Below, one piece after another: positions 9,786 to 30,589 of a stretch of 47,623 nt of DNA. The position numbers and the translations under genes were made by a program. Numbering within the stretch: the stretch's first letter is position 1; every line of letters begins with the position of its first letter. Origin of the DNA: Desulfosalsimonadaceae bacterium (GTDB lineage: Bacteria > Desulfobacterota > Desulfobacteria > Desulfobacterales > Desulfosalsimonadaceae); assembly GCA_035312245.1 (NCBI GenBank), contig DATGCF010000257.1, positions 1 to 47,623 on the forward strand, written 5' to 3'. Below the pieces are notes generated by a model. That model was given only the letters and a program-made list of their open reading frames with translations. It did not search any database and was not told where the DNA came from.

Positions 9786-12700
9786 TCATTTAAAATCCCC
9801 CACCAGCGTAAACGCCCCCCAATAGCCCGGATGGGGATACCGGTCTTTGACATGCCGGGCGGCGGCGCGCAGACTGTCCGCCTTATTGTTTTCCGTATAC
9901 CGGCGGTAGAAAGTCTTAATCAGCATGGCGGTAGAGACATCGCTTACCCGCCAGAGGCTTGAGATGATCGTATGGGTACCGGCATAAAAAAACGACCGGT
10001 TCAGACCAATGATTTCATCTCCGGCCTTTACTTTACCCAGTCCGGTCTGACATGCACTTAAACATACCATATCTGCCCGAATATCCAAGCCGAAAACTTC
10101 AGCTGCCCGCAGATCCCCGTCAGTTTTGATGTTTGTAAAGCTTTGTGCATCTGCCGCCCGGCTTAGCTTGATGGCAGACATCAGCGGATTGATGGGATCA
10201 AACTCCCCGTGGGAGGCGATGTGGATGATATCAAACCGGGCGATATTTTCCACCACCCAGGCTTCAGTCGCCTTGTCCCGGGTGAGGAGGGTGATTTCCG
10301 GAAAATTCCAGTGAATGGAGTTGACCTCCTGCTCGGCAAAGGGCAGCTCCAGCGCCGGATTGCCCAGATCCGGGTTGCCGATGGCAAGGACCTCAAGCTG
10401 GAGCTTTGGCCGCTTGATCCGCCGGGGCAGGGTGTAGTCGAGCACACTGGCGCTCGGCAGATAAAAGAGCGAGAATCGGTCAACCAGAAAATCTCCTCCG
10501 CTATAAAGGGTGGCAAAGGATAGATAATGCAAAGACCCGTGGGGGATGATGCCCACGGTATGGATGCCCTCAAGTGCGTCCCTGACCGGTGCGATCAACC
10601 GGTCGTAGAGCTTGCTGGAATGGGTCTCATAGGGCTCCAGATTTTGAATGATCCGCCGGTATTCAAGTACCCGGCTGTTTAACCGGTCTTGATCCGACGG
10701 GATGCGGAAAAGCTGGATGCGGCCGTCATCTGAGCCCGTGTTTGTATTTCTCAAAACCCAGCACAGGATTTCATTATCCAGCACATAATAGGACAAAAGA
10801 GCGGCCCCCGCCTCCAGGCGCCCGACAATTTTATCGGCACTCACCGGAGGGATGGAAATAAGTGTCGAAAGCCGGGGATGTTTGGCCTGAATATCGAGCA
10901 TCAGGTTTTGCCGCTCATTTTTGAGCTCTTTGAGCCCCTCCTGGTAGGCCTTGACTTCAGCCGTATTTTCGGCAGTGGCCAGAAGCTGTTGGGTGGCCTC
11001 GATCTCGCCAGCCAGGGTGGCTTGTTTGTCGTAGAGCTCAGCTTCAACCTTGCTTCCCAACGACACCCGCTGAGTGCCCAAAAGGTCGATAAAATTTCGG
11101 GATCGGGACCGCTCCGCGATTTCAAACGCCGCTTCTGGTTTTTCCATATCCGCCAGCAGCTTGACCAGATCTTTATACACGTCAAGCCGGTTTTGCATGA
11201 AGTTTTCCTTAAGCTCTTTTACTTTTATGGCCGAGCGCATGGACTCGATAATTTCAATCGCATCGCGAAGATAGGCGGCAGCCGCATCCTGATTGTTTTC
11301 AAGCCCAAGGCGCACCCGGCCCAGGCCGTAAAGCGCCCGCCAGTGGGTTTCCTTTATCCGCATTTGCGTTGACAGGTTAAGCGCCTGGTCATAGGCACCT
11401 TTGGCGGAGTCATAGTTATCCAGGGCGAGCTGCGCATTCCCCTTGCCCAGCAATGCCTTGGCCGCGTTTATCTGGTTGCCGATGGCATTGGATAACCGAA
11501 ACGCTTCATCAAAAAGCGGCGCCGCGGTCTTGGGCTGGTCCATTTTCAGATAGGTCAGCCCCTTGTTCCGATAGTCATAAGCCATGGCCCATTTGGATTG
11601 GAGCTCCGTATCAATGGCCAGGGCTTGATCAAAGATTTCCAGGGCTTTCTCATAATCGCCCCGCTCCCGGTGCACCAGACCGATATTGTTCAGCGTGGAG
11701 GCGACTTCATCCGGCCGGATATCAAGCTGCCGAGCTTGTTTTAGCGCGATTTCCATCTCGGTCAGGGCTTTTTCGTAGTTGCCCAGAGACCACCAGATCA
11801 GCCCGGCGGTATTTTTCGAGATCACTTCCAATAAGGGATAGTCCTGGTTGGCAGCCAGTTGATAGCACTCCCGCTGAAGTTTGAAGGCCGTCTCAAAATC
11901 GCCCTGAAACCAGGCGTTGTTTGCCTGTTCGATGATAATTTTCGCTTTAAGCCGCCGTTCTCTGGCTGTTTTGCCGGAAACCATGGAAAACGCCTGCTCA
12001 TAATGGGTCTTGGCTTTGGGGAAAACACCCAGCAGGCGATAGCATCGGCCGATATTCAGTCGGGCTTCGGCGGTTTTTTCCGGGTTGCCCATCTCCTTAT
12101 ACAGGGCAAGCGATTTTTCATAGTGGCGGATGGCCTCAGGGTAGCGGTTTAAGCGGAGATCATGGATGCGGCCGATGTTTAGATGCTGGGCGGCAAGCAT
12201 CTGGCGGTCATTGATGTCCCGGCTTAATTCGGCCGCTTTTTGAAACCGGCTTAGCGCGGATTCATAATGGGTGGCATTCTCCAGAACCACCCCCAGATCC
12301 TTCATGGCGGCGGCCAGCTTCTGATCCGCGCCCAGCATGGAAAACATATCCACTGCCGTCTCGATCACCGGCACGGCCCGGTCATATTGGCTTTTCCGGG
12401 CATGGATGAGGCCCAGGGTCAGCATGGCCTCGGCATGGGCGCGGCTGTCCGGCTTTTCGGCTTCGAGTATTTCTGTAAGTTTCTCTGCAAACGTAAGCGC
12501 CTTTTCCAGATGTCCCGCCTGATAGGCGGATTCCCGGCCAAACTGGTACAGGGCCGGCAGGTATTGGCTGTAATCCGGAACCTTAGAAGCGATGGATACG
12601 GCATGCTCAAAATTGACCAGCGCTTCTTTCGGGCTGCCGTTATCAAAGGCTGAGCGGCCGGCCTTGATATAGGCAATAAAGTTTTTTCTGGCAAATTCGG

Positions 12701-28640: not shown

Positions 28641-28675
28641 CCGGAACGGGGCCATTTACAATCACCCCGTTCCGG
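28641..28675 (-). terminator. Perfect 11-bp hairpin directly after the 38-aa ORF (possible terminator or RNA stabiliser)
   Basis: CCGGAACGGGG-N13-CCCCGTTCCGG, starting 10 nt after the ORF stop. The T-rich tract (ttttccgatctttttctttt) begins about 20 nt further downstream, so this is not a textbook intrinsic terminator. Confidence 0.45.
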
Positions 28676-28685
28676 ATGGGGAGAG

Positions 28686-28802
28686 CTAGTACATCATATA
28701 ATCTTCACCAAGCAGGCACCAGGTGTTTACCTGGGCAAACACTTCCTTCAGCTCGGCAATGATTTCTTCGTAATCCTTAATAATAATCTCTTTAATTTTC
28801 AT
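28686..28802 (-). CDS. Unannotated 38-aa acidic small protein
   Basis: Hand translation gives MKIKEIIIKDYEEIIAELKEVFAQVNTWCLLGEDYMMY*. A near-consensus SD (AAAGGAGGA) lies 7 nt upstream of the ATG (28800-28802). It has its own sigma-54-like promoter upstream and a hairpin downstream. It falls below the ORF-track length cutoff. Confidence 0.5.
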   Translation of the reverse strand: MKIKEIIIKDYEEIIAELKEVFAQVNTWCLLGEDYMMY

Positions 28803-28891
28803 GGTTGTATCCTCCTTTTAAATTTTTTTGATTCAATGCGATTTTTGTTTGAAGATGAAGCCACCCTAACCACGCATTTATAAAGAAGGGA

Positions 28892-28908
28892 TACAAGGTT
28901 TGTGCCAA
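28892..28908 (-). promoter_or_regulatory. Sigma-54 (-24/-12)-type promoter candidate
   Basis: The minus strand reads TTGGCAC-AAACC-TTGTA. This gives a perfect TGGCAC -24 element and correct 5-nt spacing, but the -12 element is TTGT rather than consensus TTGC. It lies about 90 nt upstream of the small-ORF ATG and immediately downstream of a sigma-54 activator gene. Confidence 0.45.
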
Positions 28909-28998
28909 ACTATCACTATTTTTATATTCTATATTAATTTCGGGGTATTATAATTTATTCCGATACGATGCGGGAAAACGGAAACCTCCCTGTTTGAA

Positions 28999-29024
28999 CA
29001 TGCAATGTACAGGCAATGTGCATG
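28999..29024. promoter_or_regulatory. Candidate upstream activator site (inverted repeat plus direct repeat)
   Basis: CATGCA-N14-TGCATG, containing the direct repeat GCAATGT twice. It is centred about 105 nt upstream of the putative -24 element, a typical enhancer-binding-protein distance. Confidence 0.3.
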
Positions 29025-29104
29025 AAGGGTATAGAAGCGAATAAGCCGGGGATGAGAGGGGCTTTAACCGTCAGCGGGGATAAAAGAAAGGGGCTGTGCG
29101 CTGT

Positions 29105-30589
29105 TTATTCGGCGGAAGGCGTTTGCCAGTCCTGAATATATTTTTTGACCGTTCTGCGGTCCAGGCCGGTCCGCCGGGCCACCTCTTCAAATGTCTGATG
29201 GCGCTCATAGAGAAGATAGCAGTAGCCGGAGACCAATGATGCCGCGTCAATGCTGCCGTTTTCAATCCCGCTGATCAGTTTGCGGTCGAGATCCGGTTCC
29301 GTATAACCGGATTCGCCGCTATAGACGCCCTTTAATAGAATACGGCGGGCGCATTGCTCAAGCTCCCGCACATTACCGGGCCATGGATAATCAATATCCA
29401 GTTCTTTATCAATCACTTCGCGTACCATGGATACGAGCTCAGGCGACGGCTTGCCGATCAAGCGGCCGATGGTCGTTGACAAAAGCAAATCCAGTTCCTT
29501 GGGGTCTTCTTGGATCCGCTGCCGAAGGGGCGGTACGGTAATAATATCCGAACAAAGGCGATAATAGAAGTCTTCGCGGAACCGGTCTTTCTGCCGAATA
29601 TCTGCTTTTGAGCGGTTAGTGGCGGCAATGACCCGACCCTGGAACCGGCTCTGCTTTTGACTGCCCACCGGACTGAACACCCGCTCCTGGAGAACCTGAA
29701 GCAGTTTGATCTGGATCGGATGCGACGCCTCGCCGATTTCATCGAGAAGAATCGCCCCATATGGGCTGCAGCGGTCAAACACGCCCTGATAATCCTCTAT
29801 TGCGCCGGTGAAAGCGCCTTTCCGGTGGCCGAACAGGGCGGATTCAATCAGTGTTTCCGGGAACTGTGAAAGATTCAGGGAAATAAATGATTGGGTGAAG
29901 CTCTCAACAAAGATCTTCCGCCGCCGGTCCAAGGGGATAAACCCGGATCGGCCGATCGCCTGAGCGGCGGTTCCTTTGCCGGTGCCGGTTTCTCCGAGGA
30001 GCAGGGTGGAGAAGTCTTCCATCCGGTCCTTTAAGTACCGGTCATATAGGTCGATGTTATGGGTAAATACGTTGTTCCACAGATTCCACCGCAAAAGCTT
30101 CATACACGGGCTGCTGCCAACCAGATTCCTGTCGATAAAATAAAACGCCCGTCTTATCTGAAACCCAAGCGCCAGGTAGCGCCGGAAGGCCTCATCGTCA
30201 AATCCGCGTTGAATGGCGGCAGTCTGGGCATCATTGTAAAAAGGAATTTTGGCCGGCGTGCTGCCGGCAGCGATCTGGCTGGTAATTAACTGGTCGAATT
30301 TATCCTTGAACCGATAAAAGAGTTCCACCATGAAGACCCGTTCCATCAGGGTCCTGTCCTCACCGGTAAATGCGGTAAGGGTCGCCTTGTTGGCCCTCTC
30401 GAGTTCACCGATCCGGGCGCCGATGGCATAAACAAAGGCATCAGTCCTTTTTTTCCGGGATGCGGTCTTGGAAAGTCCGCTAATTCGGGATTCAAGAGCT
30501 TCCCGCTCACTGCCGAACGGATTGATAAACCCGGCCCGGCCGACTAAGGTAAAAAATTCTCTTTGCTCCGGGGTTAGCTGATTTGCCAT
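29105..30589 (-). CDS. Sigma-54-dependent transcriptional activator (bEBP) with an uncharacterised roughly 190-aa N-terminal domain and a C-terminal HTH
   Basis: 494 aa. The AAA+ core has Walker A GETGTGKG, the sigma-54 contact loop GAFTGA (HRKGAFTGA), ILLDEIGE and WPGNVRELE. The C-terminal HTH is FEEVARRTGLDRRTVKKYI. I recognise no receiver, PAS or GAF domain in the N-terminus. Confidence 0.85.
   Translation of the reverse strand: MANQLTPEQREFFTLVGRAGFINPFGSEREALESRISGLSKTASRKKRTDAFVYAIGARIGELERANKATLTAFTGEDRTLMERVFMVELFYRFKDKFDQLITSQIAAGSTPAKIPFYNDAQTAAIQRGFDDEAFRRYLALGFQIRRAFYFIDRNLVGSSPCMKLLRWNLWNNVFTHNIDLYDRYLKDRMEDFSTLLLGETGTGKGTAAQAIGRSGFIPLDRRRKIFVESFTQSFISLNLSQFPETLIESALFGHRKGAFTGAIEDYQGVFDRCSPYGAILLDEIGEASHPIQIKLLQVLQERVFSPVGSQKQSRFQGRVIAATNRSKADIRQKDRFREDFYYRLCSDIITVPPLRQRIQEDPKELDLLLSTTIGRLIGKPSPELVSMVREVIDKELDIDYPWPGNVRELEQCARRILLKGVYSGESGYTEPDLDRKLISGIENGSIDAASLVSGYCYLLYERHQTFEEVARRTGLDRRTVKKYIQDWQTPSAE

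Follow-up and report, generated by a model that had tools for sequence, protein, structure and literature searches.

At the locus described here, the gene for a bacterial enhancer-binding protein (bEBP), a sigma-54 activator, is followed on the same strand by a candidate upstream activating sequence (UAS), an AT-rich spacer, a sigma-54-type promoter, a 38-codon open reading frame (ORF) preceded by a Shine-Dalgarno (SD) sequence, and a hairpin, beyond which lies a gene of the DUF3786 family (Table 1). The locus is part of the window, a 47,623-nucleotide (nt) stretch of DNA that is contig C257 of a 3.25-Mb, 416-contig assembly (94% complete; genome G000), and window coordinates in the text refer to the minus strand throughout. 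Judged by the source names of its closest bEBP homologues, the organism belongs to the Desulfobacterales. A preliminary description of this DNA had listed the activator gene, a palindrome, a -24/-12 element, an SD sequence and an ORF with a trailing hairpin; the gene and all four elements were found where it had located them. Comparison with related genomes suggests that the locus is a sigma-54 regulatory module with an adjacent microprotein output, and we consider it very probable that the ORF is a real microprotein gene under sigma-54/bEBP control.

Table 1. Coordinates of the features at the bEBP-microprotein locus
Feature	Position	Strand	Remarks
bEBP gene	29105-30589	-	494 aa; PF00158 match; N-terminal sensor, AAA+ domain with GAFTGA and predicted C-terminal helix-turn-helix (HTH)
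N-terminal sensor domain, ~residues 1-155	30125-30589	-	seven helices, modelled
Candidate UAS, phased TGYAC array	28996-29033	-	four units, 11-bp phasing; CATGCA-N14-TGCATG inside
AT-rich spacer, UAS to promoter	28909-28995	-	70% A+T in the 80 nt upstream of -24
Sigma-54-type promoter, TTGGCAC-N5-TTGTA	28892-28908	-	GG of -25/-24 at 28906/28905; GT of -13/-12 at 28894/28893
Predicted 5' untranslated region (UTR), 79 nt	28803-28881	-	putative transcription start site (TSS) near 28881, from -12 geometry
SD sequence AAAGGAGGA	28810-28818	-	7 nt before ATG
Microprotein ORF, 38 aa, MKIKEIIIKDYEEIIAELKEVFAQVNTWCLLGEDYMMY	28686-28802	-	purifying selection, homologues
3' hairpin	28641-28675	-	perfect 11-bp stem, 13-nt loop
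DUF3786 gene, 201 aa	27881-28486	-	Pfam 1.2e-34; starts 154 nt beyond the hairpin
Antisense ORF, 104 aa	28569-28883	+	overlaps the peptide gene; probably spurious

The microprotein gene and its transcript

On comparative sequence evidence, the 38-aa ORF is a genuine protein-coding gene. Homologues of the peptide, 37-97% identical, occur in 12 of 41 relatives, which represent several genera of the window's taxonomic family. The frame (37-41 codons) stays open in more than 12 genomes from five genera, with no frameshift or stop in any homologue save one deletion chimera. Within the genus, pN/pS ratios (non-synonymous to synonymous differences per site) are 0.03, 0.04 and 0.09; the coding sequences (CDS) of L001 and L004, for example, differ by 14 synonymous and 6 non-synonymous changes over 20 and 94 sites, respectively. 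Nucleotide identity is 82-94% in the CDS compared with 54-72% in the leader, spacer and 3' flank, and amino-acid conservation can be followed down to homologues of 32-47% identity, with faster divergence in the UTRs than in the CDS. The preliminary description had read the ORF as an unannotated acidic micro-protein, to be recognised by a conserved frame and a bias towards synonymous substitution; both were found, and neither Pfam nor NCBIfam has a model for it. The antisense ORF was considered as a gene and rejected, as selection acts on the minus-strand frame.

The peptide belongs to a small and narrowly distributed family. A profile search of 1.84 billion representative proteins returned ~30 small proteins (clusters) and nothing else credible, and database names for the homologues are either missing or 'hypothetical protein'. 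A survey of 401 genomes of the class located the peptide family in three taxonomic families only (f1, 11 of 37 genomes; f35, 3 of 14; f50, 1 of 9). The gene is single-copy in its genome, where a search of the six-frame translation for a paralogue or domain mimic recovered the gene itself only.

The family consensus is M-K-x4-I-I-[KR]-D-[FY]-E-E-I-x2-E-L-x-E-V-L-x6-L-I-G-[DE]-E-L-L-P-[MF]. The window peptide has an acidic amphipathic helix (residues 2-25) followed by an acidic/aromatic C-terminal tail, with a net charge of about -4. Across the family, conservation is higher in the N-terminal 25 residues than in the remainder of the peptide, and most members carry a single Cys. The broad hydrophobic face of the helix suggests that the peptide binds protein rather than membrane. 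Some members end in GEELLPF or GEELIPF, and mimicry of the C-terminal tip of single-stranded DNA-binding proteins (DDDIPF) was considered and rejected; these proteins end in DDDIPF or EDDIPF in the relatives, and the window peptide ends in EDYMMY.

Two members depart from the usual gene structure. In the deletion chimera L074 (G480:C59, P0024), the first ~23 bEBP codons (MTKTQLNSEEKEFLTQVCWAAFTN) run in frame into peptide codons ~11-38 (FEEIIAELKKVLSKMRTNFLEDEHLVSK), the rest of the regulator and the intergenic region being gone. In L024 (G180:C84, P0034), the frame of a sigma-54-type peptide is open and in frame with a conserved upstream stretch of ~50 codons (…EDPLYFG[YF]FALEG[MI]ERRW…) that occurs in one genus and would belong either to a longer isoform or to a separate ORF coupled to the peptide from upstream.

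The SD sequence, previously described as strong, is unpaired in the predicted fold of the leader, and an SD of the GGAGG type lies 6-8 nt before the start codon in nearly all peptide loci shown. The leader fold also contains a 5'-proximal stem-loop at ~28835-28878, a stem present in four of four genus members, with a different sequence in L004. The hairpin beyond the ORF appears in both the minimum-free-energy and the centroid folds (~-29.6 kcal/mol) and shows a compensatory A-U to G-C change between L001 and L002. Its perfect 11-bp stem is as reported earlier, but no U-tract adjoins it (no U-run lies within 2 nt of the stem in this genome), so the terminator scan made no call there. Canonical terminators occupy the equivalent position in relatives (L005, L095 and all genes of subtype B, a second branch of the family described below). 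The hairpin in the window may therefore be read in two ways, as a weak terminator or as an RNA-stabilising element.

The activator, its candidate enhancer and the promoter

PF00158 (Sigma54_activat) covers residues 190-346 of the bEBP (E = 1.6e-41), and Walker A (GETGTGKG), Walker B (LLDEIGE) and GHRKGAFTGA are intact in its translation, which bears out the earlier description of an activator with complete GAFTGA and Walker motifs. Residues K257, G258, F260, G262 and A263 are invariant across 63 homologues, and rpoN is present in the same genome (PF04552 at 1e-62, contig C25). The genome has 27 PF00158 matches in total; among the full-length ones this bEBP scores lowest, at 142 bits versus more than 210. 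Its Pfam AAA+ alignment begins at model position 20, the earlier positions being unmatched. The start of the AAA+ domain (residues ~156-190) is unusual: after LVGSSPCMKLL, an insert, RWNLWNNVFTHNIDLYDRYLKDRMEDF, replaces the usual segment and is nearly invariant within the bEBP family.

An AlphaFold2 model of the bEBP, built with 63 homologues (mean pLDDT 89.4), comprises an N-domain of seven helices, the AAA+ core and, at the C-terminus, a helical region taken as a predicted HTH; the C-terminal helices span residues 449-489, and HTH matches in Pfam are sub-threshold. Matches of the full-length model to folds in the PDB were restricted to the AAA+ domain (FleQ, FlrC, LuxO, NtrC1, DmpR and PspF, with E values of 1e-14 to 1e-17 for FleQ, NtrC1, LuxO and PspF). 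Because the AAA+ domain dominated this search, the N-domain was also modelled alone (pLDDT 83.6), and its comparison with PDB folds returned nothing significant (best E 0.64, TM score <=0.33). TetR, FadR and nuclear-receptor ligand-binding domains were considered as its relatives and discarded, since their matches, at E >0.6, are not evidence. Residues 1-~155 are matched by neither Pfam nor NCBIfam models, in line with the N-terminus having been called unassignable. The N-domain is carried by 129 proteins, mainly from Desulfobacterales with others from Verrucomicrobiota and Magnetococcales, and its invariant residues include N23-P24-F25, D99, Q105 and Q144-x-R146-R147. As modelled, the N-terminal sensor is a novel all-helical domain with no solved structural relative.

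Between the bEBP gene and the promoter lie four units at 11-bp phasing (TATAC / TGCAC / TGTAC / TGTTC). Three to four TGYAC-type units align with the same phasing at a fixed distance from the promoter in 12 loci, and a core pair, TG[C/A/T]ACAT-N4-TGTACA, lies at -115/-104 from TGGCA in six loci, shifted by about one helical turn in L008. The palindrome CATGCA-N14-TGCATG (28999-29024), which had been singled out as a possible binding site, is present but species-specific; the conserved element is the phased TGYACA array, which we take as the candidate UAS for this bEBP. A composite of two phased TGYAC units, 75-100 nt and TGGCAY-N5-YTG has one match in the 3.25-Mb assembly, where ~0.008 would be expected, and none in the reversed sequence used as a control. 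A second G000 target with this composite UAS and promoter pattern was not found in the 94%-complete assembly. The spacer keeps its composition more than its sequence: its equivalents are 54-84% A+T at the eight orthologous loci with enough upstream sequence, and identity within the genus is just 56-64%. It is probably a bend or a site of the integration host factor (IHF) type.

The -24/-12 element noted in the preliminary description is present at 28892-28908 and conserved in orthologous loci. Its -24 GG lies within TTGGCAC (28902-28908), and TGGCA[CT] is kept in all orthologous loci. At -12 the element reads TTGTA instead of TTGCW, with T at -12 and the correct GG-to-GC spacing of 10 nt. The orthologous promoters read TGGCA[CT]-N5-TTGT in 13 loci and TTGA in one (L092), and N5 varies among them while the -12 T (or A) stays; other targets of the bEBP family likewise have TTGT or TTGA. 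The targets of three distant bEBP homologues keep the -12 GC (TTGC or CTGC). In this genome, intergenic sigma-54-like sites comprise 13 with TTGC versus 3 with TTGT, and those inside long ORFs 11 of each, as by chance. The deviation from TTGC, previously held as a caveat, is thus resolved by the retention of T or A in all orthologous promoters and in other family targets, and the -12 T is a tolerated variant, probably a selected one. Weaker repression of melting, together with low-level transcription that bypasses the activator, has been associated with non-consensus -12 sequences (PMC4551910). A non-GC -12 may likewise set the balance of basal versus induced output here.

The other two intergenic TTGTA sites of G000 lie on C197 (~1331, plus strand) and C109 (~21678, minus strand), with AT-rich upstream DNA in both cases. 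The C197 site stands just downstream of another bEBP gene and drives the gene for a 125-aa receiver-like protein; the C109 site is preceded by a GTAACGTTAC-type inverted repeat and drives that of a membrane protein. Judged by this context, both look like real promoters.

Conservation, gene neighbourhoods and the role of the microprotein

In 11 genomes of five genera (G000, G001, G004, G008, G020, G010, G013, G016, G353, G500 and G501) the peptide gene comes directly after the same bEBP (65-90% identity), and the order and spacing of bEBP, UAS, promoter and ORF are kept in all of them; the adjacency is also found on metagenome contigs. At L019 (G010:C21), an enoyl-CoA hydratase gene (10544-11320) is inserted on the opposite strand between the bEBP stop codon and the peptide UAS, which shows the cassette from UAS to terminator to move or persist as a block.

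Within the window's genus, G002, G003, G005 and G007 keep the bEBP without the peptide. A pattern search found the same UAS, an AT-rich spacer and TGGCAY-N5-TTG[TA] in L107 (G003:C44) and L108 (G005:C12) in front of a FabD-like operon, that is, a gene for malonyl-CoA:ACP transacylase followed by one for a short-chain dehydrogenase/reductase. This operon has the same upstream elements in L109 (G002:C4) and L110 (G004:C90), G004 thus having both targets. It was not found in G000 (94%-complete assembly), G001 or G008, and G006, of the same genus, lacks bEBP, peptide and FabD-like operon together. The distribution matches the prediction for a shared regulator with alternative targets, as read from related genomes that are not independent of one another. 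In a further genus, g7, 13 of 16 genomes have the bEBP with a convergent gene downstream and no peptide. The dedicated regulator-target pair that had been proposed therefore stands in part: the UAS and promoter at the peptide locus very probably drive a real gene of their own, but sister species use the same elements on the FabD-like operon and g7 has no peptide.

The DUF3786 gene had been put forward as co-regulated with the peptide or as the partner of its product, which the comparison does not support. The peptide cassette lies between bEBP and DUF3786 in four genomes only, and no DUF3786 gene adjoins the peptide in G004, G010, G013 or G016; where the peptide is missing (G002, G003, G005, G007 and G017), DUF3786 directly follows or overlaps the bEBP gene. 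The junction itself (L082-L084, L081, L087) varies from an overlap in some genomes to a gap of up to ~90 bp in others. The linkage of bEBP and DUF3786 is seen in genera g1, g10 and g13 and suggests an operon, and the DUF3786 protein may serve the regulator as partner or co-sensor. The family is present in all 58 genomes of the taxonomic family at 1-7 copies per genome (four in G000), whereas a search of 14 control genomes from model organisms found no member. It comes in two forms, of ~200 and ~280 aa. Literature searches on DUF3786 yielded nothing relevant, and essentially none exists.

Genes of lipid and acyl metabolism recur beside members of the bEBP family and beside the peptide. Fusions of a major facilitator superfamily (MFS) transporter with an acyltransferase (and in some cases an AMP-binding domain) adjoin distant bEBP homologues in four distinct loci (L055-L057, L100 and L101, with L055 and L056 being two records of one locus); they occur with or without VIT, VWA, rhomboid and hydrolase genes and often behind a sigma-54 promoter. 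At L099, another distant homologue adjoins genes for a PlsC-type acyltransferase and a polyketide synthase (PKS) of more than 3,800 aa, and the promoter region of the PKS operon (ATGCACTGGCTGTACACGCCATGTTCA ... TGGCACAATACTTGTA) is nearly identical to that of the window and has the same UAS motif. One bEBP homologue lies beside tannase and esterase genes, and one beside RtcB. In G013, FadL and alpha/beta hydrolase genes come directly after the peptide with no strong hairpin between, and in G016 an enoyl-CoA hydratase gene lies 2 bp upstream of the bEBP gene. Taken together, these neighbourhoods make a lipid- or acyl-related signal and function possible, though we rate the odds at somewhat less than even.

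The peptides of subtype B have a nearly invariant Cys5 (M-x3-C-x2-[IV]-[KR]-[DE]-[FY]...) and a C-terminus of the form LIGDELLP[MFV] or LI[GS]DELLWI. Their genes (among them L075, L076, L079, L080, L045, L025 and L046) are monocistronic, with sigma-70-type hexamers and canonical terminators. In family f1 they occupy a fixed place between glnS and a gene for an acyl-CoA dehydrogenase-rubredoxin fusion; in genus g105 the gene lies upstream of a CoA-disulfide-reductase-like oxidoreductase gene and divergent from coaBC, both names having been assigned from sequence motifs. Other subtype-B genes stand alone beside a TrkA_N gene. Both subtypes occur in G013 and G353, and G374 has subtype B without a bEBP of this family.

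Based on these observations, we propose that the microprotein is a signal-induced, protein-binding output of a lipid/acyl-linked sigma-54 regulon, a reading to which we assign a probability of roughly 0.55. The N-domain of the bEBP would sense a signal, probably related to lipids, fatty acids or acyl-thioesters, and would hold the activator inactive until a ligand or partner relieves it, which is the common logic of XylR, DmpR and NtrC1-type activators. Once relieved, the bEBP would bind the phased TGYACA array ~105-115 bp upstream of -24 and, across the AT-rich and probably bent spacer, would remodel sigma-54 RNA polymerase at TGGCAC-N5-TTGTA. Transcription would start near 28881 and mostly end at the hairpin, giving a short, essentially monocistronic mRNA. 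Its translation would yield an acidic protein made of an amphipathic helix and a conserved tail of the form [G][DE][DE]-aromatic/hydrophobic at the C-terminus. The microprotein would act in trans by binding a second protein, for which an enzyme or a regulator in acyl-lipid metabolism is the most plausible candidate. The comparison shows that the gene is coding, that its order and spacing relative to bEBP, UAS and promoter are conserved, and that relatives have this type of UAS and promoter on lipid genes; the part played by this particular bEBP in activation, the position of the TSS, the signal, the protein-binding mode and the identity of the target are steps that we infer.

Several observations count against this proposal. 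The promoter has no canonical GC at -12. In several genera (g7, g10) the bEBP is found without the peptide; because it persists there, the peptide is neither its sole nor its universal output. In genus g105, conversely, a sigma-54-type peptide gene is unlinked, the bEBP being on another contig. The link to lipids is circumstantial, a case of guilt by association drawn partly from related genomes that are not independent. The profile of the peptide gave chance-level matches only against Pfam, NCBIfam and PDB sequences, and the tip of the peptide is no fixed anchor here: the last residue after EDYMM is Y, D or H within the genus.

A bolder version of the proposal makes the microprotein the effector arm of a lipid/acyl-sensing sigma-54 pathway, reprogramming an existing acyl-lipid enzyme. 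The sensor would detect a fatty acid, acyl-CoA or lysophospholipid, the peptide would be induced instead of, or beside, enzymes, and the conserved non-GC -12 would tune basal versus induced output; the acyl-CoA dehydrogenase-rubredoxin protein encoded beside sigma-70-driven paralogues would be a candidate target. We regard this version as speculative and rather improbable. Slightly less probable still is a feedback loop, a miniature of the PspA-PspF type, in which the microprotein would dock on the bEBP that controls it, either at the N-domain or on the AAA+ ring, and silence it. Such an anti-activator, one of the options raised in the preliminary description, would fit the tight adjacency to the bEBP in the 11 genomes, the position of the peptide as sole gene of the adjacent sigma-54 unit, a small acidic helix suited to docking on a protein, and an activator that has neither a receiver nor any other known control domain. 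The paralogues on sigma-70-type promoters and the genome with no bEBP of this family (G374) imply, however, that the microprotein has a role beyond the bEBP, and they weaken the case for pure feedback; the unlinked g105 gene and the many genomes in which the bEBP functions without the peptide speak against it as well, and we therefore consider this option unlikely.

Three further readings fare worse. The arrangement of a bEBP, a sigma-54 promoter and a ~240-nt transcript with terminal hairpins resembles cbrB-crcZ, and the transcript folds better than shuffled sequence (z = -2.5), as might be expected of a regulatory RNA of the CrcZ, Qrr or GlmY type, or of a dual-function RNA, with the ORF incidental or secondary. 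The pN/pS of 0.03-0.09, the retention of amino acids where the UTRs have diverged, the strong and unpaired SD and an Rfam scan of the window with zero matches make this very unlikely. It is less likely still that the ORF is a leader peptide whose hairpin acts as an attenuator of read-through into DUF3786. The hairpin does lie between the ORF and a DUF3786 gene on the same strand and has no U-tract, but most peptide loci have no DUF3786 downstream, many have canonical terminators, selection acts over the whole peptide with no regulatory codon runs, and sigma-70-like hexamers seen in the sequence precede the DUF3786 gene itself. Equally implausible is a precursor of a modified or exported product, whether a signalling peptide, as had been suggested, or a ribosomally synthesised and post-translationally modified peptide (RiPP). 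Its small size, the better conserved N-terminal 25 residues and the single Cys of most members would be in keeping with such a precursor; against this, the peptide lacks a signal sequence, none of its gene contexts has a conserved neighbour coding for a modification enzyme, protease or exporter, and the C-terminal LIGDELLP[MF] motif is conserved rather than hypervariable. The protein-binding output of a lipid/acyl-linked regulon thus remains the reading that we favour.

Significance and comparison with known systems

Small proteins are systematically missed, and the regulatory input is defined for few of them. Here it is unusually clear, with one activator, one mapped candidate enhancer, one promoter and one 38-codon gene, which makes the system directly testable. 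The analysis defines three items that are absent from current libraries: a microprotein family of ~30 clusters limited to a few Desulfobacterales families, a ~155-aa helical sensor domain of bEBPs whose gene neighbourhoods point to lipid/acyl metabolism, and a set of natural sigma-54 promoters in which T or A is conserved at -12. These promoters could inform how this position sets leakiness. If the bolder version of the proposal is true, the bEBP would control a metabolic switch based on a microprotein. A lipid-responsive sigma-54 circuit would matter physiologically in anaerobic sulfate reducers, which degrade fatty acids and hydrocarbons. A search of the literature on sigma-54-dependent microproteins found none of this kind described, nor this peptide family.

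The closest parallel in layout is CbrB-crcZ of Pseudomonas, in which a tiny sigma-54-dependent gene likewise lies immediately downstream of the bEBP gene, with the UAS in the short intergenic region; LuxO-qrr1 and GlrR-glmY share this layout. The outputs of crcZ, qrr1 and glmY are non-coding small RNAs, whereas that of the window appears to be a 38-aa protein under purifying selection, and CbrB, LuxO and GlrR are response regulators, whereas the window bEBP has a helical N-domain in place of a receiver. PspF, like the window bEBP, has no receiver domain, and the product of the window target could act back on its activator in the way that PspA regulates PspF. PspA, however, is a protein of ~220 aa of an ESCRT-III-like family and PspF has no N-domain at all, unlike the window pair; paralogues of the peptide moreover exist without the bEBP.

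As a protein, the microprotein may be compared with signal-induced modulators of enzymes such as the cyanobacterial glutamine synthetase (GS) inactivating factors IF7/IF17 and PirA, and MciZ and Sda of Bacillus subtilis, which are soluble, helix-forming proteins of fewer than 70 aa, each with its own regulated promoter and a single target protein that it binds. The window peptide is like them in size and helix and has no sequence relation to them. The activator, whose HTH is a predicted one, is built in three parts like the ligand-sensing bEBPs with non-receiver N-domains, namely XylR/DmpR (V4R sensor), NorR (GAF sensor), PrpR and TyrR: a sensor, an AAA+ domain carrying GAFTGA, and an HTH. Its AAA+ domain superposes on those of FleQ, NtrC1 and DmpR, its sensor being all-helical with no relative in Pfam, NCBIfam or the PDB, and its target promoters, unlike those of the ligand-sensing bEBPs named here, mostly have T or A for C at -12. 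Overall, the sigma-54 enhancer logic of the locus is ordinary; what is new in comparison with these systems is the microprotein output, the sensor domain and the conserved non-canonical -12.

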